From an uncultured Bacteroides sp. (GTDB lineage Bacteria; Bacillota; Clostridia; Lachnospirales; Lachnospiraceae), in NCBI GenBank assembly GCA_964563955.1, contig CAZLZH010000002.1, forward strand, positions 12,517 to 76,516: a stretch of 64,000 nucleotides of DNA, in the 5' to 3' direction. The notes under the pieces are model-generated. The model was not told the DNA's origin and did no database searches. It saw only the letters and a list, made by a program, of their open reading frames with translations. Made by a program: the position numbers and the translations under genes. Below are positions 30,441-62,267 of the stretch, one piece after another; positions within the stretch are counted from its first letter, which is position 1, and each line of letters opens with the position of its first letter.

Positions 30441-30505
30441 TCTGCTAACTCCTCCTTTTGGAACATCCGCTCATACAAAATTTGCCTTCGGCAAATGAGC
30501 GGACG

Positions 30506-31039: not shown

Positions 31040-31042
31040 GTT

Positions 31043-33240: not shown

Positions 33241-33259
33241 GAATGTTTAAATCAAATCT

Positions 33260-33369
33260 TCTTATTGCTCGACAACTTCTTATAAAGTATCGCTCAGGCC
33301 GGCACCTTCCGCTTCCGCGGGGTTGCCGTGGCTTCCTCGTCCCTTATGACTCCACCACTCTGAATAAGA
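33260..33369 (-). ncRNA. SAM-I (S-box) riboswitch aptamer
   Basis: Minus strand UCUUAUU-CAGAG-UGGUGGA-GUC(AUAAGG)GAC-GAGGAAGCCAC-GGCAACC...GGUGCC...AAUAAGA. P1, kink-turn P2, GCAACC and GGUGC cores are visible, upstream of metK. Confidence 0.85.
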
Positions 33370-33406
33370 TAGATATGTTTATATATATATCATATATCTT
33401 TTATTG

Positions 33407-34816: not shown

Positions 34817-34878
34817 CCGAGCATCCTCCTATACTACCTTATTAGCATTTATCTTGAACATCCGATTCTCAATACTAT

Positions 34879-36303: not shown

Positions 36304-36343
36304 GAAATCGCCTCCTATGTTTCATTTCACGTTTTAAACTATT

Positions 36344-39300: not shown

Positions 39301-39349
39301 CTCCATACCCCGCAGCTTCCTGTGTTTTCCTAAAATTTATATTCTCCAT
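36344..39349 (-). CDS. Large acidic protein (about 1000 aa) with FliK-like C-terminal domain (DUF6240-like)
   Basis: C-terminal YQLPVETTDGTKIVNLTL...IQIRMNHEKYESLSADISL resembles the FliK hook-length-control C-domain pattern. Start set at MENINF (39349, RBS GAGGGA). Confidence 0.55.
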   Translation of the reverse strand: MENINFRKTQEAAGYGVYEDMRKQGNHAASIGDVDAFDAVEQVQYKQDISASKNTETVMNNFEEYRRDMQEKAKAEQKNAAQDEHEANEEAKEIAKNITSEEIEQLRMMGIDVDSASLSDLMDIVNHMRREAHKEAFEQTLAQAKVQSGDYDNLMITGSGVQTAGGEVEINNVDVMDVVMDETSEVSVENRDIMYLLKNQLPLNRENLYKAHFSGQHVVEPSEQTLPDGMEEQLKKVILQAGIPVDDVSMNGAKQMLLEDIPVTTDTMRQYMQLREYEGRDISEIAPADVQVQSEQETLFQQARELCQMVWSIDAETIAGMVQENQPISIASAYAYQMKRIATGDWKEESEAFDIAAHPATEQELRAITAMRQMEEIRLSMTEQAAGRMLKADINIDTRELSQVVAELRTVERQLTRELFARKNVAFTDENVNIYREMQQSLRTIGEAPAERLGRLLKTDVSFTTRNVAEVVGRVETGESAEALSGMRIQREFAQAERSYETVGTAPRADMGDSIRKAFGNIEELLQEMDLPVTEEHVRAVRILGYNSIAITEDSVQQVMEYDRQVNDLMDACYPEAVLGMIRDGINPLDMPIEELNATLRQKQYHAGVTEAENFATYLRDMEKQGDLSAEERESYIGIYRMLNKLAKSGDREAGYLFANGSRLTVRNLLTAMRSRKAAGLDVAVDDSFGMLTNIESAGKKIDAQIERAFSNSWEALASEPEFEEAEQLLQTLEMEESAVNMKAAVLLLQDMPEHTQTQDGFYDLVSDILKKLKFRDETEEELIDQETGAMAESMTGEDIPVSFSADNLLQILEQQGDLSLTYADMREQLTELLYQNASYAAVNSGDVQSAKVIQAGFHILGKMAEKNQYQLPVETTDGTKIVNLTLIHDMEQAGTIQIRMNHEKYESLSADISLDADGVVYGEVLAGTSDGNAALLAHTADYLDDLAKNGYPEARISFGQRQLSQEQRQLQTEQKDGASNRKLMETAVFFVKALAALSDI
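36348..36376 (-). promoter_or_regulatory. Sigma-28 promoter of flagellin 2, embedded in the last codons of the upstream gene
   Basis: GTTAAG-N16-CCGATATATAAAAT; the CCGATATATAAAAT tract is identical to that of the flagellin 1 promoter. Confidence 0.75.
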
Positions 39350-39398
39350 ACACGTTCCCTCATAAACTTTAATATTTAGCAATTTCAACCTATAATAA

Positions 39399-41332: not shown

Positions 41333-42091
41333 ATGATGTTGAAACATAAATCAATTTCCTACAAAAGACAAACTATTTTAGCAATCGTAATTTTATGCAG
41401 CGGTCTTTTAATTGCATTGTTAAACAATGTACGGGAATATCCGACAATCCGGCTTCAAGAGCCACAGTATATGCTGACCGGTACGACGATGCAGAGTAGA
41501 AAAGATGTCGGTTCTTACTATGCGTCCTGTCAGACGATTTTAGACGACAATCTGTACGAGGACGAAATCGTCGTTGTCAATGAGGGAAGCGCCGGACAAC
41601 AGGAAACAACCACTTTATTTACGTATTTAAATGGCCGCTGCGTTTCCGAGGATGTCATTGATTCCCGCATCATAGTTCCGGCAGTCGCGCGCGAGGTACA
41701 CATCGGTACAAAAAAAAGACCTGCTTTTATCATGCCGGTCACAAACTATACTATCACATCTTATGTGGGACCAAGATGGGGAAGAAACCACAACGGCATA
41801 GATCTTGCCGTGCCGGTCGGAACGGATGTATACAGTTCTGCATCCGGTGTTGTGATTCAAAGCGGCTGGAATGGCGGCTACGGCATCAGCATCTATGTTG
41901 ACCACGGAAACGGCATCATTGTGCGATATGGTCATCTATCAGAAAGCTATGTAACAGTCGGACAAACCGTGTCCCAGGGTGAATTAATCGGACTGTCAGG
42001 AAACACAGGCAACAGCACAGGACCTCATCTGCATTTTGAAATGCGGTTAAATGACGAGGTCGTAAATCCTCTCGAATATGTATCCGATTAG
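41333..42091 (+). CDS. M23 family peptidoglycan endopeptidase (N-terminal anchor, G5-like segment)
   Basis: HNGID, YGHL, GNSTGPHLHFE. Confidence 0.92.
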   Translation: MMLKHKSISYKRQTILAIVILCSGLLIALLNNVREYPTIRLQEPQYMLTGTTMQSRKDVGSYYASCQTILDDNLYEDEIVVVNEGSAGQQETTTLFTYLNGRCVSEDVIDSRIIVPAVAREVHIGTKKRPAFIMPVTNYTITSYVGPRWGRNHNGIDLAVPVGTDVYSSASGVVIQSGWNGGYGISIYVDHGNGIIVRYGHLSESYVTVGQTVSQGELIGLSGNTGNSTGPHLHFEMRLNDEVVNPLEYVSD

Positions 42092-42092
42092 C

Positions 42093-42121
42093 AAAAAGCA
42101 TGGCAACTTGCCATGCTTTTT
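42093..42121. terminator. Bidirectional terminator closing the kinase operon and the M23 gene
   Basis: AAAAA-GCATGGCAA-C-TTGCCATGC-TTTTT. Confidence 0.85.
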
Positions 42122-42126
42122 ACATA

Positions 42127-42846
42127 TTATGCGACAAACACTGCCGCGGCTGTAAAATTATCATTATTCTTCGGTGCCCTTTTCTCAAGCAAAAGCAGCA
42201 TCCCCTGCAGCCATTCCTCAGGCGTGTGCGCCTGCTTTAAAATCGCTGCCATCTCTGCCTCATATACATATTCCCAAAAACCGTCCGTACATAAAAGGAA
42301 CGCATGAAATCCTTTTTCCTCCTCAAGTCTGACCGGTCCCGACACCTCCGGTTCCGCACTGTCACTGCCGATTGCCCGAACTACCTTATTCCGATCCTCA
42401 TGAAACCGAATCTGGCTCTGCGATATCTCGTTCATCAATACCGCCATCTGAGATACACTGTGATCTAACGTCTGTTCAAAAAGCTCCGCATTGCGAAACC
42501 GGTAAATGCGTGTATCACCCACATGCGCCCGCAATGCATTTCCATCCTCAAGCAGAAGCATCGCCATCGTCGTTTTCATCTCACATTCCGCTGTCTGTTG
42601 TTTTGTTACGGCAACATCGGCAAGATGAAACGCTTCGAGCACATCCTGTTTATCATGAAGCTGATTGTTTAAAAATTGCTGCATGACAATATCCGCCGCA
42701 CATCCCGATGCAATCTCTCCGTCTCCGCAGCTTCCGAGTCCGTCTGCGACAACAATACAGACAGCTTCTCCCAGCCGTTCCACACGCACAGTATCCTCAT
42801 TATAATTTCTGCCACCGCAGCCGGTGATTTTGGCAACCTCGACCAT
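42127..42846 (-). CDS. PP2C-family Ser/Thr phosphatase (soluble)
   Basis: GRNYNED, VADGLG, HVGDTR, LCTDGFW, DNFT. Confidence 0.93.
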   Translation of the reverse strand: MVEVAKITGCGGRNYNEDTVRVERLGEAVCIVVADGLGSCGDGEIASGCAADIVMQQFLNNQLHDKQDVLEAFHLADVAVTKQQTAECEMKTTMAMLLLEDGNALRAHVGDTRIYRFRNAELFEQTLDHSVSQMAVLMNEISQSQIRFHEDRNKVVRAIGSDSAEPEVSGPVRLEEEKGFHAFLLCTDGFWEYVYEAEMAAILKQAHTPEEWLQGMLLLLEKRAPKNNDNFTAAAVFVA

Positions 42847-42874
42847 ACAATCTCTCCTCTATCCACTATCCCGA

Positions 42875-45800
42875 TTAGTTCCCGCTTTCCTCTGAAGCCG
42901 GCTCCTCATAATAACGGACTTCCACATTCTCACCAAGCTGTGCCTGAAAATCACAGTCCTTCCGATATGTAACACTCTGTAACATACCGCAATCGCTGCA
43001 TACATTCGACGGCACATACGTCATATTCCGCGGGAAATAAATCTCCGTCAGATTTTCACAATAATAGATTGCATTTTCCTCCATCGTCGTTCCGCTTTCC
43101 GACAAGTCCAATAGTGTGAGATTATCGCAAAATGAAATTGCCGCAGTTCCGATTGTCTCAAGGCAGGAACCCTGTTCAAGCTGAAGGCTCGTCAGTCCGT
43201 CACAATCGAAAAATGCATATCCCGCAATCGTCTTTACGCTGGCAGGAATAAAGTATCCCCCCTGCGCTCCATCCGGAAAGCTGATAAGCGTCGTCATATC
43301 CTTCGTAAATAATACACCGTTTTTAACGGCAAAGGTCTGATTGAGTGTATCAACCGAAAAACCATCCGCCGCTATGTTGGTCGCAATTTTAGAACCAATA
43401 TTCTGCACGTTTGCAGGAATCGCCAAATGTGTAATCTGCGTATCATAAAAGCAGAAGGAATCAATCGTCGTAACTGCATTCGGAATCGTAATTTCCGCAA
43501 GTGATGTACAGCCGCCGAACGCAGACATGCCAAGTGTATTCAGACTTGCCGGGAGCTTTACATAGCTTAAGGCTGCGCAGTTTTCAAAGGCATAGTCATT
43601 TACCGTTTGTACATAAGAGCCAAGCACAATCTTTTCGATATTGCTCTCTGCAAATGCGCTTTCACCAATACCGACAACCTCGGTATCCTCAATCGTATCC
43701 GGCAGCATCAGCTCCGTTAAATCTCCGTTGTATCCGGTAATGACGACCCCGCTTCCATCCTCCGTGAAGTCATAATCCAGTTCATCCTCTGACGCATAAA
43801 TATAAAAATCAACATCTGACGGCAGACATCCCGGTTCGATATCCGTAACCGGTATGTCATCTATGATATACGGAATCCCGACCTCATTGTCGATGCCCTC
43901 ATAACCGCAGATGGTAATGGAACCATCCTTCTTTTTATAAAGCAGGCCATTTTCGGCTTTATACACATCCGCCTCGTCCGCCTCTAACAATCCGGTGCCA
44001 TCCTTATACGCCATATAAACCCGGCTTCCGGTATAGTTTTCAGCATCATTTTCTCCCTCGAGCAACCAAAGCTCCGTGCCCGATACGCAAATCGACAGGA
44101 AATATTTCCCATCTACAATTTTATTATTTCCGGTTCCGTCTTCGCGAATCTGGTACAGATTTCCGTCATCTGCCCCAACGTAATAAATCCATCCGTCACC
44201 ATACGCAAATGTGAAATGATTTACATCCATTTTCGCATCATAGACATTCTGTTTCAGTTCACCGTCCAGATTCAATTCGGATATTACATTTTCCTTATAG
44301 GAATACAAATATATCGTTTCATTCTCGATGAAACCATATGTATACAGCATCTCATCATCCAGAAGCTTTGCATGCTTTCCGTTTACATTGGACTTATATA
44401 ATTCCGTCCCGCTCTCATCGTTATACAATGTGTAGTATAATGAATCTCCGTATAGATTATACCAGCAGACATCATCGGCTACTAATGTCTCTACGGCATC
44501 CGTTGCGAGATTGTAACGCTGTAGATTCGCCGTCTCCCCATCCGGAGAACCCTCCACAAAATACAGATATTCCTCGTCATTGGAGAACTGGACATACTGC
44601 ATAAGCATAATTTCATTTAGTTCGTCATACAGGCATTCTATATTGCTTCCGTCATGGTTCATTTTAAACAGCGCGCTGGAATTATCGTTCCGCTCCGCAA
44701 AATAGATGACATCCTTACCTTCGTTGATATAGTACGCATTTTCCGCCACAATCACCGCTTCATCAACATAAAAGTAGCCGTCTGTCTCATCAAATTCAGA
44801 TAGTTTCAAATTTTGATTGTGGTCGAGGAAATATTCATATTCATTCTCAAGCAGGAGCAGGCCTCCATCATTTAATATATTGCTGTTTGAATTGCCAAGC
44901 CGTTCCACCGTGACACGCCATGGATTTATAATGACGAGAATAACGGCAATTATTGCACAGACGAGCGCTGCCGCAATCGGTATAATCACCTTCTTCGATG
45001 GCTTTTTCCGTTTTTTCTTCTCTGCATGCGTATTCGTTTTGCCGATTTGTTCCACCGCAACAGTCACATTGGCTTTACCATCCCCACTATAGGCTGCAAG
45101 TTTTGCCTGCAAATCCCCCATAGTCTGAATCCGCTCCTCTGACCGAATGGAAAGTCCAAGACGCAGTGTGTCAATAAAATTCTCCGAAATAAAATCACCG
45201 GACGGGGCAGGCGGAAAAACAAGCGGGTCATCCATCATCCGATCCATGGCATCCGGGATAACCTTTCCATACACACAATAATATATGGTCGCACAAAATG
45301 CATAGACATCCGTCCACGGGCCGATGGAGCCATGCTCCATGTACTGCTCCGCCGGACTGAAACCGTGCTTTGTGACAAGCTGCGATACACTGTCTTTATT
45401 TACACTTATATCCTTCGCCGCTCCAAGATCAAGCAGCATCATATGTCCGTCCTGCTGCATCATGATATTATCCGGACTGATATCCCGATGTATCAAGCCC
45501 TGCTCATGCACCTTCGCGAGACTCGTCATAAGCGGTGCCAGCTTTTGAATACATTCGCGATAAGGCATCGTACCGTTTTTCATCAGATATTGCTTCAACG
45601 TAGTCCCTTCAATAAAGTCCATGACAATATACGCGGTCTGATTCTCGTAAAAGGTGTCGCGCACCCGCACGATACCCGGTATAGAATCAAGCTTCGCCAT
45701 CTTTCGCGCTTCCTTAAGAAAGCTCTCACAGCCCTGTTTCCACTGTTCCTCCTGTCCTATAGAGGAATGCCACTGTAACGTGCTTCCTGTTATACTGTCT

Positions 45801-46054
45801 CTGGAAGCACTGCCCAGCGGTAAATATTCCTTAATGCAAACCTTTATGCTGAGCAGCAAATCAAATCCGATATAGGTGATTCCGAATCCTCCCTGCCCGA
45901 GCATTTTTCCGACAAGATATCTGCCATGCAGAACCGTATTACATTTGAGCGCGATCGTTGGCTGTGCAAGCGGTTGATTTTGGTCAAACCCACACTTCTT
46001 ACATATATCTCCCTCCAGCTCTTCCATACAATTTATGCAATGTTTTATCTCCAT
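42875..46054 (-). CDS. Membrane Ser/Thr kinase: Zn-ribbon, kinase, TM, DUF5050-like propeller, BspA-type LRRs
   Basis: CINC/CKKC; GQGGFG, IKEY, HRDISPDN, DLG, SPAE; TM VIIPIAAALVCAIIAVILVII; LRR_5 repeats such as IGESAFAES and VNDYAFENCAALSYVKLP. Confidence 0.9.
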   Translation of the reverse strand: MEIKHCINCMEELEGDICKKCGFDQNQPLAQPTIALKCNTVLHGRYLVGKMLGQGGFGITYIGFDLLLSIKVCIKEYLPLGSASRDSITGSTLQWHSSIGQEEQWKQGCESFLKEARKMAKLDSIPGIVRVRDTFYENQTAYIVMDFIEGTTLKQYLMKNGTMPYRECIQKLAPLMTSLAKVHEQGLIHRDISPDNIMMQQDGHMMLLDLGAAKDISVNKDSVSQLVTKHGFSPAEQYMEHGSIGPWTDVYAFCATIYYCVYGKVIPDAMDRMMDDPLVFPPAPSGDFISENFIDTLRLGLSIRSEERIQTMGDLQAKLAAYSGDGKANVTVAVEQIGKTNTHAEKKKRKKPSKKVIIPIAAALVCAIIAVILVIINPWRVTVERLGNSNSNILNDGGLLLLENEYEYFLDHNQNLKLSEFDETDGYFYVDEAVIVAENAYYINEGKDVIYFAERNDNSSALFKMNHDGSNIECLYDELNEIMLMQYVQFSNDEEYLYFVEGSPDGETANLQRYNLATDAVETLVADDVCWYNLYGDSLYYTLYNDESGTELYKSNVNGKHAKLLDDEMLYTYGFIENETIYLYSYKENVISELNLDGELKQNVYDAKMDVNHFTFAYGDGWIYYVGADDGNLYQIREDGTGNNKIVDGKYFLSICVSGTELWLLEGENDAENYTGSRVYMAYKDGTGLLEADEADVYKAENGLLYKKKDGSITICGYEGIDNEVGIPYIIDDIPVTDIEPGCLPSDVDFYIYASEDELDYDFTEDGSGVVITGYNGDLTELMLPDTIEDTEVVGIGESAFAESNIEKIVLGSYVQTVNDYAFENCAALSYVKLPASLNTLGMSAFGGCTSLAEITIPNAVTTIDSFCFYDTQITHLAIPANVQNIGSKIATNIAADGFSVDTLNQTFAVKNGVLFTKDMTTLISFPDGAQGGYFIPASVKTIAGYAFFDCDGLTSLQLEQGSCLETIGTAAISFCDNLTLLDLSESGTTMEENAIYYCENLTEIYFPRNMTYVPSNVCSDCGMLQSVTYRKDCDFQAQLGENVEVRYYEEPASEESGN

Positions 46055-46094
46055 ATCAGTGTTCCTTTCCTATCCTTCCAATTTCCGCTGACTT

Positions 46095-47363
46095 CTAACT
46101 GCCGCAGCTTAACGTCAGAATTTCCTGTCCGAATTGAATGGCAGCCCCATCCTTCCATTCATACCACATAGGAGGCTGTAAGCGCTGTCCGTTTAAATAA
46201 GTTCCGTACGTTGAATTTTCATCCTTTATAAAGACCTTCCCGGCTTCGTCCATATAAACCATACATTGTCTCCGGCTGACACCCGGCGTATTCGACGGAT
46301 ATTGAATATCACAGCTAAAATCCCGTCCAATTACACAGGTTTGACCGAGCTTTAAATTCTGCCTTCTTCCGTTCAGCATGCCCTGAAATACAATGCTCTT
46401 TTGCCTCGCTCCGCCAAACAGCTGCCGATAAAGCTCTGCAACAGACTGATACCGATCCTCCGGCATGGCTGACATGCCCTTTGTGATTGCCTGCGCGACA
46501 TTTGCCGGAAGTGTGGGACAAAGCTGTGTAATCGGGATTGTCTTGTCCGCCATAATCCGTTCCGGTGCTTTCGGCGGCAACACACCGGCAAGCGCATAAT
46601 ACATCGTGACGCAAAGGGCGTAAATATCCGTCCACGGTCCCTGATTCCCATTGGAGCGGTACTGCTCAAACGGTGCAAAATTGTGTTTTAATATCGTTGT
46701 AAGTCCATTCGGATTGTTGTAGCTTCGAAGGGAACCGAAATCGATCAGCTTCGCATGTCCATCCCTTGTCAAAAAGATATTGTCCGGGCTGATATCCCGG
46801 TGTATGAGATTTCTCTCATGAATCACCTGCAGGGCATGCATAACCATCTTCATATAGACGGACAGCTTCTCCCACGGCATCTTTCCGTATTTCAGGAGTG
46901 TGGATTTCAAATCCATGCCATCCAGAAATTCCATGGAATAATATGCCGTATTATTCTCCTCAAACAATCGGTATACGTTCACAATATCCGCTTCATTCGA
47001 AAAGCTATAGAGTGCCTGCGCCTCCTCAAGAAAGCGTTTTTTTACATGCGAAATATAATCCTCCTGCCCAAATACAATCTGCACGGTCACACCATTTTGC
47101 TCCCGTGTCATATCCTGATTCGGATAAAACTCCTTCACCGCAACACGCATGCCATTTTTCATATCCCATGCAAGATACGTGATTCCGTAACCGCCAACAC
47201 CTATTACCCGTCCAATATAATATTGCTGTCCCAGTATATGCCTTGCCGGAAGCGCCGTCGCCGGTCTGTTTGTATCCCAATCTACCGGTCTTTTGCAGAC
47301 CATACACGTATGCTGTTCAGTCGTGCCCGCCATGCAATATGTACATAAATGCTGTAGCTCCAT
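46095..47363 (-). CDS. Soluble Ser/Thr kinase with N-terminal Zn-ribbon and C-terminal FHA domain
   Basis: CTYC/CMVC; GVGGYG, VKEF, HRDISPDN, DFG, APFE; FHA IGRD...GVSRRQC...STYGT. Confidence 0.92.
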   Translation of the reverse strand: MELQHLCTYCMAGTTEQHTCMVCKRPVDWDTNRPATALPARHILGQQYYIGRVIGVGGYGITYLAWDMKNGMRVAVKEFYPNQDMTREQNGVTVQIVFGQEDYISHVKKRFLEEAQALYSFSNEADIVNVYRLFEENNTAYYSMEFLDGMDLKSTLLKYGKMPWEKLSVYMKMVMHALQVIHERNLIHRDISPDNIFLTRDGHAKLIDFGSLRSYNNPNGLTTILKHNFAPFEQYRSNGNQGPWTDIYALCVTMYYALAGVLPPKAPERIMADKTIPITQLCPTLPANVAQAITKGMSAMPEDRYQSVAELYRQLFGGARQKSIVFQGMLNGRRQNLKLGQTCVIGRDFSCDIQYPSNTPGVSRRQCMVYMDEAGKVFIKDENSTYGTYLNGQRLQPPMWYEWKDGAAIQFGQEILTLSCGS

Positions 47364-47387
47364 ATGGATTCCCTCTTATGTCCTATT

Positions 47388-48485
47388 TTACAATTCCAAT
47401 AAAATCGCGGTAAAGTTATCCTGCTTTGGATTTTGTTTTGCAAGCACAGCCTGTTCCATACGGGCCGCTGCCTCGGAAGCACACACGGACTCCTGCACAA
47501 TCCGGCAGATTTCCGGCTCCGAAAGCGTATTGAATACGCCATCCGACATCAACAGCAGCCAATCTCCCGTCTGATAGGAAAGCTTTTTCGTACTTCCATC
47601 TATATATTTTAATTCTCCCATTCCAATAAAGCTTGTGAGACCGCTCCGGCTTTTATCAGTTTTTACCGACTGAAATGTAATTCTTCCGTTAACCGCCTTC
47701 TGCATAAGCTCCGTCTCATAAATATGCTCCCGGTTTAACAGCAGCAGTTGATTTCCCCGATATAGATAAATATGACTGTCTCCAACGGTCGCCCACTGGA
47801 AACCATCCTTTTCAATCAATGCGGCAATCACAGTAGATCCACTCTTATACTGATTCTCCACGCCAAGCATTTGATTGACCTCATGGTTTGCGTGTGCAAT
47901 CATTTCATACAGGCAATTCTCGGTTTTTCCCGGTTTTAACATCGTGGAATCCTGCAGCATTGTCATAACTATCTGCTGGCTTACGCGGTCGCCGTCTGCA
48001 AGTCCGCCCATGCCATCTGCCACGATGGCAAGCGTTCCCCCGGCAAAATCCGTCATGCCGAGACTGTCCTGCTGTCCGCTTCTCCGCCCGATATTATGCA
48101 ATTTTCCGACACGGTTTTCGGCATTTACAGCCTCCGGTTCTACAGCTGTATGCTCTACAAGTACAGTCTGTTCCGGTAACGTCTCCACATCCATTTTATC
48201 CGTCTTGTTTTCCGCCTGTTTTTTTTGTAGGCGTACAAGCATATAGGCGAGTATTACACACGCAACGAATAAGACCGCGCTCAAGATACCAAACACAGTG
48301 GCAAGCTTCCCCTGTCCCTGTGTTCTTTTTGTTTCCGTCGCTGTTGACGGCGTAGCCTCAATCTCCGTTGATGGTGCAGTCTCCGTACCGCTTATCCCAA
48401 ACGCTGCATCCGACACGGTTGCCTGCTGTCCGTCCCCATCTGTCGCAAGCTCCACATGTTCATCATATATATATACACTCATCAT
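47388..48485 (-). CDS. Membrane-anchored PP2C phosphatase
   Basis: Thr-rich N-terminus, TM LATVFGILSAVLFVACVILAYMLV, then GRRSGQQD, VADGMGG, VGDSH, MSDGV, DNFT. Start approximate. Confidence 0.88.
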   Translation of the reverse strand: MMSVYIYDEHVELATDGDGQQATVSDAAFGISGTETAPSTEIEATPSTATETKRTQGQGKLATVFGILSAVLFVACVILAYMLVRLQKKQAENKTDKMDVETLPEQTVLVEHTAVEPEAVNAENRVGKLHNIGRRSGQQDSLGMTDFAGGTLAIVADGMGGLADGDRVSQQIVMTMLQDSTMLKPGKTENCLYEMIAHANHEVNQMLGVENQYKSGSTVIAALIEKDGFQWATVGDSHIYLYRGNQLLLLNREHIYETELMQKAVNGRITFQSVKTDKSRSGLTSFIGMGELKYIDGSTKKLSYQTGDWLLLMSDGVFNTLSEPEICRIVQESVCASEAAARMEQAVLAKQNPKQDNFTAILLEL

Positions 48486-48498
48486 TTCTTCCATCGCA

Positions 48499-49122
48499 TC
48501 ACACATTCCAATCAAATTTTTCTCCGCAAAGCGGTATAAACAAAAGCTTTGTGGAACCAATCGTAATCTCGTCATGATCGTTTATCTGTGTCGGTGTCAT
48601 AACCATCTTGCCATTCAGGCGAACAATACTTTTTCCGTCTGCCGGTCCGAAGAAGAATACTCGTTCCTCCTGGTCATAGGCAATCAGAGCGTGACGCTCC
48701 CGCCCAATCTTTTGATCCCCTCGAATACAGATATCCATCTGCTCACTTCTTCCAATGTAATTGTAACCGGCTCTGATTCTGTAATCCGTTCCACGCTCCG
48801 GTCCGTCGACGCAGACGAGCCATCCTGTAACCGGCGAAAATCCTGCAATACCACCGATATTCACAGCCTGTGTCGCTCCATCATAATCCTCAACGCCCAT
48901 ATTATTTGCAAGGTCGCCTCCGCCGAACATATCCATCGGCTCTGGTGCCTGCTCATTCATCATTCCAACCGGCTGTGTCGCTCCGTATTCACCCGGTCCC
49001 GTCTGGGCAAATACCGGTGCTGTCGCACCATATCCTCCTCCGTTTTCTGCCGCGCACTGCGGGCATGCCGTATTTGCTTCCGCATCATAAAAATGTCCTT
49101 TTTCGCATCTTACTATTTCCAT
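48499..49122 (-). CDS. FHA domain protein with N-terminal CxxGH...CPxC motif
   Basis: RCEKGHFYD...CPQC; GWLVCVDGPERG; FHA IGRS...IGRERH. Confidence 0.88.
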   Translation of the reverse strand: MEIVRCEKGHFYDAEANTACPQCAAENGGGYGATAPVFAQTGPGEYGATQPVGMMNEQAPEPMDMFGGGDLANNMGVEDYDGATQAVNIGGIAGFSPVTGWLVCVDGPERGTDYRIRAGYNYIGRSEQMDICIRGDQKIGRERHALIAYDQEERVFFFGPADGKSIVRLNGKMVMTPTQINDHDEITIGSTKLLFIPLCGEKFDWNV

Positions 49123-49162
49123 CGTTTTGTCCTCCTTTTATAAACATATTTTTAACCTTTTA

Positions 49163-50635
49163 TCAGGCTTTTTTAATCACAAACATATTCCTCTGCTCCC
49201 CGATGCAGAACCGGTCGCCCTCCTTTAATACAACCGGCGTATGCGGAGAGAGCTTTCCCTTCCCCTCCACATAGGTTCCAAATGAGGATTCCAAATCCAC
49301 AAGCATCAGATCATTCCCCTGCCAGTAAAGCTTGCAATGCATCCGGCTGACACCCTTTACATCAGACGGATACCGGATACTTGCCGACGCATCCCGTCCA
49401 ATCGTGACCTCTCTTGCATCCATCGGGTAAATGCGCCCGTCCATATATCCGCCGACTGCGCTAAGCTTACATTTCTTCCCTTGGACAGCAGTTCCCTTCG
49501 TCTCAGGAGCCGCTACAGCAGGCATTGGCGGTACATAAGGGGCGGTAGCCCCGATTTCTTCAACCTTACCGGGCGAATTCTGCATCGGTGCAGGCTGAGG
49601 CGCAGGGGCAGTTTTAATTGGATTTGGCTGGATTGATGCAGGCTGAATCGGTGTCTGATTCAAATAAGGATTTGCTTCCTGAAGCGGTACATCCTGTGAT
49701 GCACTTCCTGTTTCATCCTTTTGCTGTTTCTTTTTGAAATAGATTCCTCCGCCAATCAATCCGGCTCCGACCAATAAAATCCACCAATATTTTTGGATTC
49801 CGCCGGATTTTTTATCGCTGCTCTCCTTGTTGCTTTCATTTCCATTGTTACCTGTTCCCTGATTGTCATTTCCGCTTCCGTTGTTATTCGTTCCCGAATT
49901 ATCATTTCCGCTTCCGTTGTTATCCGTTCCCTGATTGTCATTTCCGCTTCCGTTGTTATTCGTTCCCGAATTATCATTTCCGCTTCCGCTGTTATCCGTT
50001 CCCGAATTATCATCCGAGTTTGCATAAAAGGTGTCCTCGCTTGCAAAAATCCCCCATATGCCTCCTTCTGTTGCAAGCGCAACACAATTTCCGTCTCCAT
50101 TTACAACCATCGCAGGCGGGTAATACGCACTTGTCGGTCCGTCTGACGCTGTTATAAACGCATAGTTATCCCGTATCTGAAGTCCCGTAATTGTGGCACT
50201 CGCCGTACTTTCATTGGAAGACTCATCCAAGTAATATACACTGCAGACCTCGTTTTCATGCGGTGCGTCAATCGAGTAAAAAGAAGTGTCCGGACTCCCG
50301 CCGACTAACGACCACTGAATCACGCTCAATGTGTTATCCAGTGCATACATTTCCAGATTATAAGAATTTCCCTCCGTCGAAATATAAACGTAATTGACTG
50401 TCGCATCGGTCATCGGCGACAATGACGAAAATATAAAGCATTCCCCCTGGCTGTCAATCAGTGCAGCGGCAGGACTGTATGCACACGGATTGTCTGTTTC
50501 ATCAAGTCCAAAGACATAGCCAGATATACCGGTTCTTCCGGCAGCCCGCGCCGGCTGCGCAGATACGGCAATTCCAAAAAGCAGCATGCACAAAGCAAGT
50601 GCGTAAATCTGCAAACGTGATCTTCGTTTTTTCAT
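49163..50635 (-). CDS. Signal peptide, trypsin-like (probably inactive) domain, Asn/Gly repeats, TM, Pro-rich linker, FHA
   Basis: Start MKKRRSRL (50635) with signal peptide; VVNGDGNCVALAT; TM YWWILLVGAGLIGGGIYF; FHA IGRD...GVSRMHC...SSFGT. Confidence 0.8.
   Translation of the reverse strand: MKKRRSRLQIYALALCMLLFGIAVSAQPARAAGRTGISGYVFGLDETDNPCAYSPAAALIDSQGECFIFSSLSPMTDATVNYVYISTEGNSYNLEMYALDNTLSVIQWSLVGGSPDTSFYSIDAPHENEVCSVYYLDESSNESTASATITGLQIRDNYAFITASDGPTSAYYPPAMVVNGDGNCVALATEGGIWGIFASEDTFYANSDDNSGTDNSGSGNDNSGTNNNGSGNDNQGTDNNGSGNDNSGTNNNGSGNDNQGTGNNGNESNKESSDKKSGGIQKYWWILLVGAGLIGGGIYFKKKQQKDETGSASQDVPLQEANPYLNQTPIQPASIQPNPIKTAPAPQPAPMQNSPGKVEEIGATAPYVPPMPAVAAPETKGTAVQGKKCKLSAVGGYMDGRIYPMDAREVTIGRDASASIRYPSDVKGVSRMHCKLYWQGNDLMLVDLESSFGTYVEGKGKLSPHTPVVLKEGDRFCIGEQRNMFVIKKA
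49845..50012 (-). repeat. In-frame 36-bp tandem repeat (about 4.5 copies, 72-bp higher-order period)
   Basis: Encodes alternating NDNSGTNNNGSG / NDNQGTDNNGSG units. Confidence 0.9.
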
Positions 50636-50655
50636 GCTGATACCCCCATTCTTTA

Positions 50656-52029
50656 TTATCTCTGATAAGTAACGCGGAACGTCTGATTGGATTGCGCAAG
50701 CTGTATTACATCGCCCTCCCGCAGGACATAAAATCTGCCCGGCTCCAGCTTCACGCGATTTACAAACGTTCCATATGTAGAATTCAAATCGCGGATTGTC
50801 CATCCCTGATCCGTATATTGAATGATACAATGCTGTCTGCTGACACCCGCCACATTGCCCGATATCTTAAATATATTTCCATCCTCGCGCCCTATCGTAA
50901 GTGTTTCTGACATCACGGACTGCCATACAGCGCCTTTTATAACGCCCTCCATACACACAACCGTAAGCTTCGGTGTGGACTGTGGTGCCTCAGCCGCTGC
51001 CATCTGCGCCGGTGCATACGACTGTGCACTTCCGCTCGTATAACCCGACGGTGCAATCACCTGATACAGACATTTTTTAACGATATACAACACAAGCAAC
51101 CATTGCAACAATAAGAATCCAATATAGACAATATACGATACAAGCTGATCAAGCCCATGCTCAGCCGAGTAGGTTCCAAAGGCATTCCATGAAAAATGCA
51201 GTGCCATTGCTCCGATAAATGCGATTAAGAAATCAATATCTATAAAAGCCGATCCGCGCATCTTACCCTTTTTGCACGCAAGTGCATACGCCCCTGAGTA
51301 AGACGCGCACCAAAGCGTATGTGTGCCAAAGGCGCCGATCATCCGGCCATAAACAAACATCTGCATTGCACCATATAATCCGGATGTTTCTCCCTGCAGC
51401 GCATACTGCGCTGATTCAAATGCCGAAAACCCAGCTCCTACAGCCGCACCGATTATGACTCCATTTATTCCATAGAGTGTTTTCTTTTTCGTAAAAAACA
51501 GCATGCATAAAAGCGCCGCAATCAGCTTTGCCGGTTCCTCCGTAAATGCCGCATATGATGCCGGCGTTTCCTTTGTTGCGATAAACCGCAATATCACTTC
51601 TGTCACAAGCAGAGAGGTCACCCCTCCAACGAAAAAATAACCGATTACCTCATAGATTGAAATGTTTTTGGGAATATTCAGTTCCCATAAAAACACAAGC
51701 ACCACAAGCGGTATGACAAGCGGAGGAATCACAATTGCGATAATCTGTATCGCAGGTACAATGTATTCAATTTTAATGGAAATAAAATAAACCAGAAATA
51801 TAAACGCGATTAAAATCAGACCGGCAATAAACAGCCGATACCAGACCCACGGCTTATGCCATTTTTTGAGCATATCCGCATCGGTTGCAGTGTTCATGGA
51901 GGTTCCTGCGGACAGCGCATATTCAAGCTCCTCCTTCGAGTGCTTTTTCCGGCTCTCTGAAAAAATGTCCCTCCATTTTATCTTATTTGCATCCGTTTTT
52001 ACCTGCTTATAAAAAAAGGTATTCCCCAT
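50656..52029 (-). CDS. PrsW-family intramembrane glutamic protease fused to a C-terminal FHA domain
   Basis: FTEEPAK, GAGFSAFESAQY, THTLW, ALHFSWN, many TM segments; FHA IGRE...GVSRQHC...STYGT. Start at MGNTFF (52029, RBS GGAGG). Confidence 0.88.
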   Translation of the reverse strand: MGNTFFYKQVKTDANKIKWRDIFSESRKKHSKEELEYALSAGTSMNTATDADMLKKWHKPWVWYRLFIAGLILIAFIFLVYFISIKIEYIVPAIQIIAIVIPPLVIPLVVLVFLWELNIPKNISIYEVIGYFFVGGVTSLLVTEVILRFIATKETPASYAAFTEEPAKLIAALLCMLFFTKKKTLYGINGVIIGAAVGAGFSAFESAQYALQGETSGLYGAMQMFVYGRMIGAFGTHTLWCASYSGAYALACKKGKMRGSAFIDIDFLIAFIGAMALHFSWNAFGTYSAEHGLDQLVSYIVYIGFLLLQWLLVLYIVKKCLYQVIAPSGYTSGSAQSYAPAQMAAAEAPQSTPKLTVVCMEGVIKGAVWQSVMSETLTIGREDGNIFKISGNVAGVSRQHCIIQYTDQGWTIRDLNSTYGTFVNRVKLEPGRFYVLREGDVIQLAQSNQTFRVTYQR

Positions 52030-52093: not shown

Positions 52094-52141
52094 AAAAAGG
52101 GATGCAGCCAGCACACATCATGTACTGGCCGCATCCCTTTT
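52094..52141 (-). terminator. Terminator separating the DUF4349 gene from the kinase operon
   Basis: AAAAGGGATGC...GCCAG-loop-CTGGC...GCATCCCTTTT. Confidence 0.75.
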
Positions 52142-52164: not shown

Positions 52165-53205
52165 TTATTTCTCCTGCTCACTCTCGGAATCCTGTACAGG
52201 CTGAGCAGGATTACTGCTTTCCTCCTTCCGATTCCGTTTTGCCTTTCTCTTTTTAATCAATGCTTTTATAACGATGATAATGACTACAATCACTACGATG
52301 CCATAAATATTCCGGATGACAAAGAACAATGTGTTCTCAAGGAATTTTAAGAAGCTCTGCCATGATTGTCTGCATGTATTTTTAAACCGGTTTCCGAAAG
52401 TATCCGTCGGCTCCGGATCCTCCTCATACTCCTTTACCTCCTTAATTGTGATATCAATATAAGAATATGCCACATCATTCTCGATATTGGTAATTCCCGA
52501 TTTCAACCGCGCAATCTCCATCTGAATATCAAACAGCTCGTTCTCAATCTGTAATGCATACTCATCATCGGTCGCGCTCTCAAGCAGCGTCAGGTAGCGT
52601 GCATACTCTGCCTCATAAATCTCAAGCTGGGACTTATAAGTGCTGTACTGCTGTGTCACATTTGTAGCATCCGAGCATCTGCTTCTGACATCTCCGAGTG
52701 TTGTCGCTGCATTTATGATCGCGTCATATTCCGTACTCGGAACCCGTACAGTCGCGTAATACAAATTGTGCTTCCGGTTATTATCAACCGCATAATAACC
52801 GCTTGTGGAATAGCTGTCCGAATAGGACTCGGATTCCACAAATCCGCCCTTTTGATTAAGCAGCGTCTTAAAATCATTTACAGACGTATCAAAATCCAAC
52901 GTATCAATACTGAGTTCACCCCGATATACAAGCATCTCCTTATCCAGCTTAGGAGCAGAATCCGTGCCTGTATTCGCCGTGGCAGAAAGTCCATTGTCTG
53001 CAAGCTCTTCATCCGCTGATGAATACATTTCATCCATTTCTTCTGCCACATCATCCGTATAAGATGCTTCCGTATTCTCCATCACGGCTTCATAATATGA
53101 ATCAGATTTCATCTGCTCGTCCGACGCCTTGTTTCCGCAACCGGTACAAAGCATTGCCAACGCGGCAGCCACTACCATTTGCTTTTTCCATCTCTTTTTT
53201 TTCAT
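52165..53205 (-). CDS. DUF4349-like lipoprotein with C-terminal TM
   Basis: Lipobox CTGC, ATVRVPS, DVTQQY-like motif, VAYSYIDITI, C-terminal TM plus basic tail. Confidence 0.8.
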   Translation of the reverse strand: MKKKRWKKQMVVAAALAMLCTGCGNKASDEQMKSDSYYEAVMENTEASYTDDVAEEMDEMYSSADEELADNGLSATANTGTDSAPKLDKEMLVYRGELSIDTLDFDTSVNDFKTLLNQKGGFVESESYSDSYSTSGYYAVDNNRKHNLYYATVRVPSTEYDAIINAATTLGDVRSRCSDATNVTQQYSTYKSQLEIYEAEYARYLTLLESATDDEYALQIENELFDIQMEIARLKSGITNIENDVAYSYIDITIKEVKEYEEDPEPTDTFGNRFKNTCRQSWQSFLKFLENTLFFVIRNIYGIVVIVVIIIVIKALIKKRKAKRNRKEESSNPAQPVQDSESEQEK

Positions 53206-53293: not shown

Positions 53294-55048
53294 TTATTCC
53301 GCGTAAACAATTTCAAACTCCGGCTCCCCATATTGCTCGACCAATGCCGCCATCTCATCCCTCTTACTATAACTCACTTCCAGCTTTTGGAGGTTCGGCA
53401 TCGTATACAATGGTGACAAATCTTCGATTTGGCAGGATACAATATTAAGGTACTGAATATCCTCCCGCCCCTTAAGCGCAGATATATCCGTAATCTCAGA
53501 ATGGTAAATATACAGCTTCGTTACGCCTTCTACTTCATCCAGGCAGGACAACTCCGTCTGTCCGGGTGCTCCGAACTTTATTTCATCGTAGCTTTTTCCA
53601 CCCAGGTACATATAGGCATCCGAATCACAGGCAATATCTAAAAAACTCGGCTCACGCAAAGCTTCAATCGGGCTTCCGTCAAAGCTGCCGGCATTGCGCA
53701 AATCCAAGCTTTTCAAAGCCGGGCAGTTTCGAATCACCTCAATGCTTTTCAAGTTATTATTGCAAAACCCTATAAAACTCAGGTATTTCTTATCTGCAAG
53801 CACCGATATATCCTCAATATCATTTTCACGAAATTCTATCAAGACCAGCTTGTCAAGATATTTGAGCGGTGAAATATCTGTAATATGCTCTCCTCCGATA
53901 TACACATTTTGCAGATTCGGCATATAAGCAAGATCAGAGATATCCGTGAGTTCTCCCTGCATACTTCCACGCTCATCCCATGTATATGCATATTCATAAT
54001 ATTCCTCTTCTGTTTTGACAGCATATTTCTCGAATATATATATTTCCTTTACATCCTTTAATTCCTCATACTTAATATTGCCGTATGGCTTACCAAGCTC
54101 CAGCCGGACCGCTTCCTCTATCAACGGTTCCTTAAAATCTATCACCCTGTCATGCCGGTAAGCTTTATATCTCATCACGCCGACAACCGTCAAAACGACC
54201 AGCAACACACCCATGGCAATCATACTGATCCATTTTTTCCTTGCATGCGATTGATACTCTTTCGTCAATTTTTGCAATGAAAAAATCAGCACATTATCAT
54301 CCTTGAACCGTTTTTCCGGTGCAAAGCCGGTGCATCGTGCTGAAATCTTCTCAAGCTTTGAAACGGGATCCTTAAACGGCTTTGCCTTTCCGGTCATCAT
54401 CCATGCAAGCAGAATTCCAAACGAATAAATGTCTGAGCGGATATCCGTCTGCATAAATCCGTACTGCTCCGGTGCTGCATATCCCTTCGTACCGCAGACA
54501 ATCGTATCCACATCTTCCCCTTCTTTGTAGATGCGGCTGATGCCAAAGTCAATCAGAGCTACACTGCCGTCCTCTTTTATAATCACATTTTGCGGTTTGA
54601 TATCTCTGTGTACGATGACCGGATTGGATGTATGTAAAATCTCCATTGCCTTCGCAAGCTTAATTGCTATAGCAATGATTTCTTCCTCCAGCACATGATG
54701 CGTCAGAAAAAATTCATCCAGCGGTGTCCCTTCCACATACTCCCGCACAACAATCTGGTATTTCTCGCTTTCATATTCCCCGACCAAATCCGGTATGATA
54801 TCGCTGGCCAATCCATTTGCCTGCATGGAGATATCCATTGAAAAGTCATCCTGCTCCCTACGGTAACATTTTGCCACACATTTTTTCTGCGTCTTTGTCT
54901 CAACCACGAGTAGAGTATCACAATCATCCTTGCTGCTCAGGCAGGAAACCACTGTATATCCTTCCATAAATGCCTGTGGCAGTTCCTGTTCATAGCTTTT
55001 ATCAAATTCTGCTTCAAACGCTTCTTTTATATCCATTCTGTCAGTCAC
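53294..55048 (-). CDS. Membrane Ser/Thr kinase with extracellular internalin-type LRRs
   Basis: VHRDIKPQN, DFG, YAAPEQ; TM; ITDISPLKYL and IEDISVL LRRs. GTG start directly abuts the upstream TAA. Confidence 0.88.
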   Translation of the reverse strand: MTDRMDIKEAFEAEFDKSYEQELPQAFMEGYTVVSCLSSKDDCDTLLVVETKTQKKCVAKCYRREQDDFSMDISMQANGLASDIIPDLVGEYESEKYQIVVREYVEGTPLDEFFLTHHVLEEEIIAIAIKLAKAMEILHTSNPVIVHRDIKPQNVIIKEDGSVALIDFGISRIYKEGEDVDTIVCGTKGYAAPEQYGFMQTDIRSDIYSFGILLAWMMTGKAKPFKDPVSKLEKISARCTGFAPEKRFKDDNVLIFSLQKLTKEYQSHARKKWISMIAMGVLLVVLTVVGVMRYKAYRHDRVIDFKEPLIEEAVRLELGKPYGNIKYEELKDVKEIYIFEKYAVKTEEEYYEYAYTWDERGSMQGELTDISDLAYMPNLQNVYIGGEHITDISPLKYLDKLVLIEFRENDIEDISVLADKKYLSFIGFCNNNLKSIEVIRNCPALKSLDLRNAGSFDGSPIEALREPSFLDIACDSDAYMYLGGKSYDEIKFGAPGQTELSCLDEVEGVTKLYIYHSEITDISALKGREDIQYLNIVSCQIEDLSPLYTMPNLQKLEVSYSKRDEMAALVEQYGEPEFEIVYAE

Positions 55049-55474
55049 TTATCCTTCTCCAAGCAATGGAAGCTCAAGCGACGCCATCAAATCCTGCACC
55101 TCCATCACACTCATTTTATGTGATAATCCGTAAATACAGGCGGCATCCCGCTTCACCTTTGCATACAACATACATTTTCCTGCTTTCTTCAGCAGCGTCT
55201 GCGTCTCTTCAAATGTCAGCCCAAAGCCAAAGGCAAGCTGTATCAGCTTATCTCTTGAAGGAATCCGGGTTCCGTTAAATATCTGATGCCCATATGTCCT
55301 GTCTATCTGTGATCTTTTTATGACCTGCTCCGGTACCTGTCGGCGCACTTCACATAAGTCCTTCAAATACCGCGATACACTCTGCTCTGTAAAGCAGTCG
55401 TCATTTGTCTCAAGCACCTTTTGAAAATTTTTGCCATGCATAATTCTATTTAACAAAGAATTTGTCGTAAGCAT
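55049..55474 (-). CDS. XRE-like helix-turn-helix protein
   Basis: IDRTYGHQIFNGTRIPSRDKLIQLAFGFGLTFEETQTLLK. Start at MLTT (RBS GGAGGAG). Confidence 0.75.
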   Translation of the reverse strand: MLTTNSLLNRIMHGKNFQKVLETNDDCFTEQSVSRYLKDLCEVRRQVPEQVIKRSQIDRTYGHQIFNGTRIPSRDKLIQLAFGFGLTFEETQTLLKKAGKCMLYAKVKRDAACIYGLSHKMSVMEVQDLMASLELPLLGEG

Positions 55475-55505
55475 ATAGAACACTCCTCCCGTTTGCCCCG
55501 GCGAT

Positions 55506-61743: not shown

Positions 61744-61750
61744 TTCCTTC

Positions 61751-62212: not shown

Positions 62213-62267
62213 TTGTTTCCCCTTTGATAGCACTTTTTTGATCAAAAAATCCTCTCTCATATATTTA

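Follow-up and report, generated by a model that had tools for sequence, protein, structure and literature searches.

Several described systems combine Ser/Thr phosphorylation with FHA domains, which generally prefer phosphothreonine (pThr) in the context pT-x-x-[I/L/V], and it is with these and related ones that we compare a seven-gene operon of a gut Lachnospiraceae bacterium, located at positions 42127-52029, on the minus strand, of a 64-kb stretch of DNA (positions 12,517 to 76,516 of contig CAZLZH010000002.1; the whole stretch is referred to here as the window). Mycobacterium tuberculosis carries the operon fhaA-fhaB-pstP-rodA-pbpA-pknA-pknB, and GarA is a phospho-switch whose N-terminal phospho-Thr binds its own C-terminal FHA domain. 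The threonine phosphorylation pathway of the H1 type VI secretion system (H1-T6SS) of Pseudomonas aeruginosa is PpkA-PppA-Fha1, and the classical substrate of the PrsW protease is an anti-sigma factor. In Sulfolobus acidocaldarius the zinc-ribbon and FHA protein ArnA, the vWA protein ArnB, the kinases ArnC and ArnD and the phosphatase PP2A control the archaellum and Aap pili. Genes DRA0331-DRA0334 of Deinococcus radiodurans encode a vWA protein, a Ser/Thr kinase (STK), an FHA protein and an FHA-PP2C protein, and are linked to DNA damage. The TerY-P triad consists of a TerY-like vWA protein, a PP2C phosphatase and an STK with a C-terminal zinc ribbon (PMC11090510).

Two Ser/Thr kinases, two PP2C phosphatases, four FHA proteins and one membrane protease are encoded by the operon described here, as identified with Pfam. 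It is a real, conserved and uncharacterised feature, and what is new in it are domain fusions within the kinase/PP2C/FHA(/vWA) kind of system. We lean, with a little short of even confidence, towards the view that the seven genes are one transcription unit for a membrane-centred phosphothreonine complex, and that they represent a vWA-less derivative of a family found in Clostridia.

Organization of the operon and its products

The seven open reading frames (ORFs), taken from the ORF list and its translations and numbered g1 to g7 from the 5' end of the operon, are listed here with their boundaries and two linker features.

52095..52141 (-): upstream boundary hairpin, 22 bp, -38.1 kcal/mol, z = -10.0; intrinsic terminator of the preceding DUF4349 gene
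50656..52029 (-): g1, 457 aa; polytopic PrsW-family membrane metalloprotease with a C-terminal cytoplasmic FHA domain (PF13367 and PF00498)
49163..50635 (-): g2, 490 aa; signal peptide, ectodomain of ~175 aa, spacer, transmembrane (TM) segment, Pro-rich cytoplasmic linker, FHA
49532..49564 (-): VEEIGATAP motif in the linker of g2
48499..49122 (-): g3, 207 aa; N-terminal Zn knuckle, Gly-rich linker, C-terminal FHA (Pfam)
48862..49032 (-): motif linker of g3, with three Y/D-G-A-T-[AQ]-[PA]-V motifs
47388..48506 (-): g4, 372 aa; acidic Thr-rich N-terminal tail, TM 68-86, PP2C (PF13672/PF00481, PP2C_2/PP2C)
46095..47363 (-): g5, 422 aa; soluble Zn-ribbon, Hanks kinase and FHA protein
42875..46054 (-): g6, 1059 aa; Zn-ribbon, Hanks kinase, TM 357-375, DUF5050 beta-propeller, BspA-type LRR_5
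42127..42846 (-): g7, 239 aa; soluble PP2C (PP2C_2)
~42092..42123 (both strands): downstream boundary hairpin, 15 bp, U-run, -22 kcal/mol, z = -6.4

This gene order, with its coordinates and architectures, and the presence of terminators on both sides agree with a preliminary description made from the ORFs of the window, and the gaps, which it had put at about 13-40 bp, measure 20, 40, -8, 24, 40 and 28 nt from g1 to g7. A plausible Shine-Dalgarno-like sequence precedes every start, that of g4 overlapping the stop of g3 by 8 nt (with an alternative ATG at 48494). From the gaps and the flanking hairpins we infer that the seven genes are co-transcribed. Public RNA runs under the same species label look like libraries of eukaryotic hosts (oligo-dT, single-cell) and do not contain the sequence of the locus. 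After the upstream hairpin come an extended -10-like sequence, TGCTAAAAT, a Shine-Dalgarno sequence, GGAAGGAGG, and the g1 ATG at 52029; the downstream hairpin is a bidirectional terminator between g7 and a convergent M23 peptidase gene (41333-42091, +). Also as described earlier, no vWA/TerY gene, T6SS or type VII secretion (T7SS) gene or transcription factor was found between the two hairpins (Pfam, with tblastn for vWA), and Rfam identified no RNA element at the operon. The GC content of 0.45-0.49 is inside the range of the rest of the window. The best sigma-70-like match of the region (TTGACA-16-TATATT, 11/12) is at 50430-50457 (-), inside the coding sequence of g2, and judging from its sequence could be an internal promoter for g3-g7.

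The catalytic motifs of both enzyme classes are intact in the translations: VAVK/VCIK, HRDISPDN and DFG/DLG in the kinases, and DGMGG/DGLGS, SDG/TDG and DN in the phosphatases. The soluble kinase g5 has Pfam matches of 109 bits to Pkinase and 59 bits to FHA, with VAVK, HRDISPDN and DFG motifs and cysteines at 7, 10, 20 and 23; a CxxC...CxxC pattern lies N-terminally at residues 6-23 of both g5 and g6. The domain order of g6 predicts a receptor kinase whose propeller and LRR would be extracellular. Its relatives are 40-58% identical in the kinase part and the ectodomain is often swapped, the receptor kinases of the family carrying LRR, propeller or lectin ectodomains. Both g4, in which the metal-binding motifs are read as DGMGG, SDG and DN, and g7 match PF13672/PF00481 above the cutoffs, and g7 scores 128.7 bits against the NCBIfam Stp1 family, below its cutoff of 230. 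All four FHA proteins are above the PF00498 cutoff, with G-R and S-R-x-H in g1 and g2, S-R-R-Q in g5 and G-R-E-R-H in g3.

The Zn-FHA protein g3 is the most conserved gene of the cluster family. Its knuckle has the form C6-x3-H10...C20-x2-C23, and C6, H10, C20 and C23 are all invariant in an alignment of twelve orthologues (alignment A1). The linker between knuckle and FHA domain carries the motifs YGATAPV (T34), YGATQPV (T49) and DGATQAV (T84), of which T84 is invariant and T34 and T49 are at least 90% conserved in the same alignment. Such motifs abound in the family: the linkers of 80 Zn-FHA proteins contain 191 T-x-P-[VILMF] motifs, with at least one in 75 of the 80 proteins, at a density of 30.4 per 1000 aa compared with 0.54 in a background of unrelated ORFs from the same loci (~56-fold). 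Linkers preceding other FHA domains are moderately enriched (4.4 motifs per 1000 aa in proteins of the g2 type, 3.6 in a trypsin type and 2.9 in a vWA type, both described below), for which Pro-rich composition may be part of the cause. A Thr followed by a hydrophobic residue at +3 fits the general preference of FHA domains, and T34, T49 and T84 are candidate kinase targets and candidate pT-x-x-V ligands for the FHA domains. The best solved relative of the g3 profile among PDB matches is GarA/Rv1827 (E = 6e-5), and g3 resembles a phospho-hub of the GarA/ArnA type.

On the protease side, g1 scores 56.4 bits against PF13367 (MEROPS M82; cutoff 23.5). Among the matches listed in a search that found 198 homologues of g1, PrsW and FHA occur together, and across 32 PrsW-FHA homologues the PrsW residues E164, E165, K168, H237 and H278 (EExxK and two His) are invariant. 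In the pThr pocket of the FHA domain G380 and H400 are invariant, and R381, S397 and R398 nearly so. Because the residues of both the active site and the FHA pocket are conserved, the protease and FHA halves of g1 are probably both functional. A simple hydropathy scan undercounts TM helices, missing the Gly-rich one of g2 and merging those of PrsW, and for the topology of g1 we make no firm claim beyond its Pfam family.

The only Pfam domain of g2 is its FHA, and the ectodomain matches nothing in Pfam or PDB. Between ectodomain and TM segment, at residues ~206-270 (~49830-50020, -), are low-complexity repeats rich in N, G, S and D (SGNDNSGTNNNG...); this spacer varies in length among close relatives, contains an assembly gap in one of them (L001), and is probably a wall-spanning linker. 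In the cytoplasmic linker, T364 of VEEIGATAP is invariant in four orthologues, which were all the usable ones that a full-length search returned, and similar motifs occur in other g2 orthologues (EEYGATMPL, EDIGATMPV, EDATVPL), making this a candidate phospho-acceptor and candidate FHA-docking site. A homologue search with the ectodomain alone gave no matches, in BLASTP comparisons of g2 with two trypsin-TM-FHA proteins the FHA domain alone aligned, and a first hhalign comparison of 13 g2-type with 3 trypsin ectodomains was not significant. A signal appeared only with enlarged alignments: 35 g2-type and 32 trypsin-TM-FHA ectodomains align over 180 columns with a probability of 85% and E = 5.9e-6. 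The trypsin-TM-FHA family retains TNxHV and GNSGGP, whereas at these positions neither His nor Ser is conserved in the g2 family, and in g2 of the window FIFSSLSP stands opposite FVTNxHVV and AYYPPAMV opposite GNSGGPLV, so that the catalytic His and Ser motifs are replaced. With moderate confidence, the g2 ectodomain is a probable inactive trypsin fold, a pseudo-protease paralogue.

The genes for PrsW-FHA and ectodomain-TM-FHA proteins keep company across the family. In 27 of 45 cases PrsW-FHA directly adjoins a trypsin-type or g2-type FHA gene, and in a further 9 an unclassified ectodomain-FHA gene, so that the neighbour is some ectodomain-TM-FHA gene in 36 of the 45; these counts suggest that the two are a functional pair.

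A family of related clusters in Clostridia

The closest genome matches are from Lachnospiraceae, with a metagenome-assembled genome (MAG) of Wujia sp. 82% identical in g1 and 91% identical in g3. Contig L018 has the same seven genes in the same order with no additions (g1 75% identical), and the order recurs in three Lachnospiraceae MAGs (L019, L021, L023) with g3 ~77% identical. More distant Lachnospiraceae at 40-60% identity, which include Roseburia hominis (L003), Lachnoclostridium (L004) and Eubacterium (L005) together with L007, L012, L014 and L015, usually have the order g1 g2 g3 g4 g5 g7 X g6, in which gene X encodes a protein of 510-540 aa with a signal peptide, a vWA domain with a DxSxS metal ion-dependent adhesion site (MIDAS), a TM segment and a C-terminal FHA domain. 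Gene X is absent from the whole 64-kb window, where tblastn with four vWA-FHA orthologues matched FHA domains only. Some relatives also encode a trypsin-like (Trypsin_2) TM-FHA protein with TNxHV and GNSGGP intact.

With alignment A1 as the query and one genome scanned per GTDB species, g3-type loci were found in at least 163 species-representative genomes of Clostridia. The best 80 of the 163 loci are from Lachnospiraceae, Oscillospiraceae, Ruminococcaceae, Acutalibacteraceae and Christensenellaceae, and among them are strains in culture, namely [Clostridium] asparagiforme DSM 15981, Dorea acetigenes, Murimonas intestini DSM 26524 and Butyrivibrio sp. MB2005. A small number of MAGs with the locus are labelled Bacteroides, Muribaculum or Veillonellaceae, labels that may be binning errors. 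The components were counted in the 43 loci with full flanks, using custom hidden Markov models built from orthologues on naive ORF calls rather than curated annotation:

Two or more PP2C: 43/43 loci
Kinase without FHA, mostly long and receptor-like: 42/43 loci
vWA-FHA (signal peptide-vWA-TM-FHA): 35/43 loci
Kinase-FHA: 29/43 loci
Trypsin-FHA or g2-type ectodomain-FHA: 27/43 loci
PrsW-FHA: 23/43 loci

The component set therefore recurs across Clostridia in these 43 complete loci, with a median of five FHA proteins per locus, often with permuted gene order and with unrelated flanks; conservation of this sort is what the preliminary description had proposed to look for in a gene-neighbourhood survey. 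Clustering of the remaining ORFs within and near the clusters revealed no further conserved gene, whether effector, toxin or transcription factor, the largest other ORF family being present in 8 of ~70 loci. Because no other family exceeds this, and with the seven-gene order kept in L018, L019, L021 and L023, the cluster is a self-contained unit, as had been supposed. The core of the family is the Zn-FHA protein, two PP2C phosphatases, the kinase or kinases and usually the vWA-TM-FHA protein, with PrsW-FHA a frequent accessory. The absence of vWA, noted earlier, is true of this operon but is not a trait of the family, in which 35 of 43 related clusters encode such a protein; the operon is a reduced, vWA-less form, and the loss belongs to the clade of the window and not to the family.

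One contig, L011 (1-12100), carries a PrsW-FHA homologue, 36% identical, inside two consecutive STK/PP2C/vWA sets with a TerY_C gene, and a radical-SAM/SPASM gene and a Sel1-repeat kinase lie downstream of these sets. Given the 35 loci with vWA and this TerY_C cluster, the operon is a variant of the known vWA/kinase/PP2C/FHA kind and does not stand outside it. The claim of an uncharacterised new system survives in its first part. In PADLOC-DB v2 the only matches were to generic models for kinases (mad6, PD-T4-6, MkoA, Stk2) and to a single candidate model for PP2C (PDC-M21C), with no match for g1, g2 or g3 and no system-specific component. NCBIfam gave sub-threshold family matches only, and a full-text literature search, with subscription-only papers outside its reach, found no paper on the cluster and none joining PrsW or an intramembrane protease with FHA domains.

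Proposed mechanism and alternative explanations

Domain content, conservation of the gene set, integrity of the catalytic sites, enrichment of the motifs and adjacency of the PrsW-FHA and ectodomain-FHA genes were observed; the kinase-substrate relations, the pairing of FHA domains with motifs, the ligand and the protease substrate in the scheme that follows are what we infer. In this scheme the beta-propeller/BspA-LRR ectodomain of g6 would bind an extracellular macromolecular ligand and g6 would become active, and g6 and the soluble g5, recruited by its own FHA domain, would phosphorylate the G-A-T-x-P-V repeats of g3 and the similar motif in the linker of g2. The FHA domains of g1, g2, g5 and g3 would dock on the resulting pT-x-x-V sites, and phosphorylation would assemble or remodel a complex that brings PrsW to its partner. 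Cleavage by PrsW at the membrane surface would thereby be switched, the likeliest substrate being g2 itself or another single-pass protein, and the membrane-anchored PP2C g4 and soluble PP2C g7 would reset the system. The likely function would then be a phospho-dependent assembly of membrane proteins that controls surface proteolysis.

A number of observations weigh against this account. The FHA domain of g3 has Gly (IGRERH) in place of the usual phosphate-contacting Ser in the window and most orthologues; some orthologues retain Ser (ISREKH), and on this replacement the binding mode of the g3 FHA is uncertain. Loci with more FHA proteins do not have significantly more motifs in g3, the correlation being weak (rho = 0.26, p = 0.09). 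There is no anti-sigma gene inside the operon, and no substrate of PrsW was identified. The trypsin-fold assignment of g2 is a single profile-profile match at 85% probability, and the AlphaFold2 models of the ectodomain are unusable, with a pLDDT score of 35.7 for the sequence alone and 39.5 with a four-sequence alignment. Finally, PrsW is absent from ~45% of the family clusters. Regulated proteolysis as the output, which had been put forward earlier, is plausible in view of the invariant PrsW residues and the 36 of 45 adjacencies; with PrsW in only 23 of 43 loci, however, it is not a universal output of the family, and proteolysis by PrsW is an add-on.

A wider interpretation, possible but on the unlikely side, is that the family constitutes an undescribed class of Hanks-kinase signalling in gut Clostridia, in which FHA domains fused to envelope proteases would read phosphothreonine directly and so bring about regulated proteolysis or shedding at the surface of the cell with no transcription factor. 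The readers would be PrsW, DegS-like trypsin proteases, pseudo-enzyme paralogues and the surface vWA protein, the multi-site Zn-FHA hub would assemble them, and the hypervariable receptor kinases would supply ligand input.

Several of the alternatives involve the surroundings of the operon. The window is ordinary chromosome in which the neighbours are housekeeping, flagellar and cyclic di-GMP (c-di-GMP) genes. Downstream of the operon are genes for flagellin, FliS, a DUF6240 protein, VanZ, metK, two carbamoyltransferases, EPSP synthase and methionyl-tRNA synthetase (MetRS), and upstream are a DUF4349 lipoprotein gene, a third receptor kinase gene with a small ORF resembling a helix-turn-helix (HTH) protein, and PocR-GGDEF, HipA_C, sortase, extracytoplasmic function (ECF) sigma factor and GGDEF genes. 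The features located are:

29478-31978 (-): two carbamoyltransferase (OTCase/ATCase-fold) genes with a DUF5673 gene between them
33259-33370 (-): SAM (S-box) riboswitch, 65.4 bits, located upstream of the gene for S-adenosylmethionine synthetase (31998-33185)
34337-39388 (-): flagellar group, with FliS-like (34337-34816), flagellin (34879-36303) and DUF6240 (1014 aa; 36344-39388) genes
52165-53205 (-): DUF4349 protein; lipoprotein signal LCTGC, weak DUF4179 match, C-terminal TM, own strong terminator
53294-55048 (-): third receptor kinase, STK-TM-LRR_4; HRDIKPQN, DFG, one TM, extracellular LRR_4
55049-55483 (-): small ORF, 144 aa, XRE-like helix-turn-helix pattern; its stop abuts the start of the third kinase
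55506-56609 and 62888-63985: GGDEF genes, the former with a PocR sensor, on the far side of the operon from the flagellar group
56718-57665 (-): 315-aa ORF, HipA C-terminal kinase domain as sole match

The third kinase and small ORF are cut off from the operon by the DUF4349 gene, which only the closest relatives have, and by its terminator. The kinase is also upstream of PrsW-FHA in L001, L017 and L018, directly adjacent to it in L018, where its small neighbour is a weak HTH_31 match; the pair, of uncertain membership, could serve as an accessory input or supply the missing transcription factor. An ECF-type sigma factor gene (61751-62260, -) and a following unannotated 361-aa ORF, which could be an anti-sigma factor, form a pair at 60658-62260, ~9 kb upstream. 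The pair is kept only in the closest relative examined (L017), and for want of conservation alongside the cluster it was dropped as a PrsW target.

Occasional mobility is hinted at by two metagenomic contigs on which the cluster has, directly upstream, a resolvase gene (L012) or two integrase genes of phage type (L013). Phage records contained no PrsW-FHA, only PrsW-like ORFs without FHA, and all that plasmids yielded was a distant FHA domain of the g3 type, in a different cluster. That cluster, at 6764-14656 of the Leisingera sp. S132 plasmid NZ_CP083557.1 (L098), encodes an STK, an FHA protein, a PP2C, a zeta toxin and two dynamin-family proteins; its FHA domain is 40% identical to that of g3, and similar FHA genes are on 19 plasmids of the Roseobacter group, Azospirillum and Rhizobium. 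The Leisingera cluster suggests that a kinase/FHA/PP2C cassette is a portable regulator joined to varied membrane-related partners.

A role in anti-phage defence or conflict, along the lines of TerY-P or kinase-based abortive infection, with receptor kinases that would detect phage attack or foreign cells and proteases that would be the effectors, is in our estimation improbable. Known defence systems include TerY-P-like modules and single kinases (PMC11090510; KKP module, PMC11341870), one PrsW-FHA homologue is within STK/PP2C/vWA/TerY_C genes, flanks differ between species, with integrase or resolvase genes adjoining two clusters, and receptor ectodomains are highly variable. The operon kinases match the PADLOC PD-T4-6 and mad6 kinase models, but these matches are to generic kinase domains, none is system-specific, and PrsW, g2 and g3 have none. 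There is no gene for a nuclease or toxin and no other effector gene is conserved, the neighbours in the window are not defence genes, GC content does not set the operon apart from the rest of the window, and the identity of g3 drops with taxonomic distance from 91% to ~40%, as it does for vertically inherited genes. The sensing domains of the operon also point out of the cell, whereas known kinase systems, to our knowledge, sense phage in the cytoplasm. An anti-phage role was among the functions mooted in the preliminary description; nothing points specifically to defence, and the PADLOC check that it recommended returned generic kinase and PP2C matches only.

We also give little credence to a regulator of cell-envelope growth or division, a Clostridial counterpart of the actinobacterial FhaA-FhaB-PstP-PknA-PknB operon. 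The parts list is alike, with at least two FHA proteins (one of them membrane-anchored, with a sub-threshold FhaB/FipA match of 54.7 bits, cutoff 125), a TM-anchored PP2C and two Hanks kinases, as well as a GarA-like FHA domain and a convergent gene for an M23 peptidoglycan peptidase at the 3' end of the operon. Yet rodA/pbpA or any other wall-synthesis gene is in none of ~70 clusters, there are no PASTA domains (PknB_PASTA_kin, 127-140 bits, cutoff 450), and distant loci do not keep the M23 neighbour. An ArnA/ArnB-like switch over motility or surface appendages, with the Zn-FHA hub acting on flagellar or pilus expression, would draw on the Sulfolobus precedent, in which the archaellum and Aap pili are under the control of ArnA/ArnB, ArnC/ArnD and a phosphatase, on the family core of Zn-FHA, vWA-FHA, kinases and phosphatases, and on the flagellin, FliS and two GGDEF genes within 10-15 kb in the window. 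It is very improbable: the window has no vWA partner, the vWA of relatives is extracellular and so unable to bind, in the manner of ArnB, a Zn ribbon in the cytoplasm, other species do not share the flagellar neighbours, and there is no transcription factor in the cluster; nor did the g3 profile match ArnA in the PDB at E <= 1. That the genes have no common function and are a chance accumulation of independent signalling genes would suit the frequent pleiotropy of Hanks kinases and the lack of a visible shared output gene, but all 43 complete loci share the component set despite reordering and unrelated flanks, the gaps are of -8 to 40 nt, and we consider it extremely improbable.

The phosphothreonine complex that we favour would be of interest in several respects. 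Hanks-type kinases of gut commensal Clostridia are almost unstudied, and the family, in at least 163 species representatives including cultured strains, offers a compact and testable system: a 207-aa hub bearing three candidate phospho-sites, FHA domains as four readers, two erasers and a protease whose active site is defined. Should phosphorylation indeed gate the FHA-fused PrsW and trypsin-like proteases, Ser/Thr phosphorylation and site-1 proteolysis, hitherto treated separately in bacteria, would be joined, and the variable LRR, propeller and lectin ectodomains may reveal what bacteria sense on the surfaces of host or neighbouring cells.

Comparison with known systems

The operon shares with the TerY-P triad a kinase, a PP2C and a zinc ribbon; its relatives carry vWA, and one PrsW-FHA homologue is beside TerY_C. 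Of the three TerY-P components the operon itself has the PP2C, and lacks both the vWA and an STK with a C-terminal zinc ribbon (or OB fold). Its zinc ribbons are instead N-terminal, its kinases end in FHA or in a propeller/LRR ectodomain, it has four FHA proteins and a protease, the vWA of the family is extracellular, and there are no Ter, restriction or CoCoNuT neighbours.

ArnA/ArnB provides a Zn-ribbon-FHA protein, Hanks kinases, a Ser/Thr phosphatase and a vWA protein, the last present in most relatives of the operon, and its complex formation depends on multi-site Thr phosphorylation, the same logic as we propose here. The N-terminal Zn-binding and C-terminal FHA architecture of ArnA is that of g3, the likeness being one of architecture only. 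A cytoplasmic vWA partner of the ArnB type is absent from the window and is extracytoplasmic in relatives, with a signal peptide before and a TM segment after the vWA domain. The operon differs further in that its phospho-motifs are on the Zn-FHA protein itself and its phosphatases are PP2C and not PP2A; the family vWA is secreted and membrane-anchored with its own FHA, and the cluster adds PrsW-FHA, trypsin-like-FHA and kinase-FHA fusions.

The Mycobacterium tuberculosis operon has in common several FHA proteins, one of them membrane-anchored, a TM-anchored PP2C and two Hanks kinases; the operon described here differs in having no RodA/PbpA and no PASTA domains, and a PP2C of reversed topology with the TM segment N-terminal, in keeping with the sub-threshold NCBIfam scores for PknB_PASTA_kin and FhaB_Rv0019c given above. 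As in GarA/OdhI, the Thr motifs of g3 precede a C-terminal FHA domain, and among solved relatives GarA comes closest to g3, but g3 has a Zn knuckle and two to four repeated motifs where GarA has a single ETTS site. The PpkA-PppA-Fha1 pathway is similar in its receptor Hanks kinase with an extracytoplasmic domain, its PP2C, its FHA adaptor and its post-translational control of a membrane machine, and NCBIfam gives weak matches to TagH-type FHA models in the operon. The operon nevertheless has no T6SS genes, it has multiple FHA fusions, and the proteases are its only candidate effectors.

Deinococcus DRA0331-DRA0334 is alike in its operon-encoded vWA/kinase/FHA/PP2C set and push-pull control of phosphorylation through FHA docking, and differs in being cytoplasmic, of four genes, with no membrane proteases or receptor ectodomains. 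Among site-1 proteases, g1 is of the same family as Bacillus subtilis PrsW (RsiW/sigma-W), with the EExxK/H/H active site intact, and relatives of the operon encode membrane-anchored trypsin-like proteases with intact motifs like Escherichia coli DegS (RseA/sigma-E), although the trypsin-like partner in the window, g2, has no catalytic residues. The cluster contains neither an anti-sigma/sigma pair nor a site-2 protease, and what sets its proteases apart from PrsW and DegS is their fusion to a cytoplasmic FHA domain.

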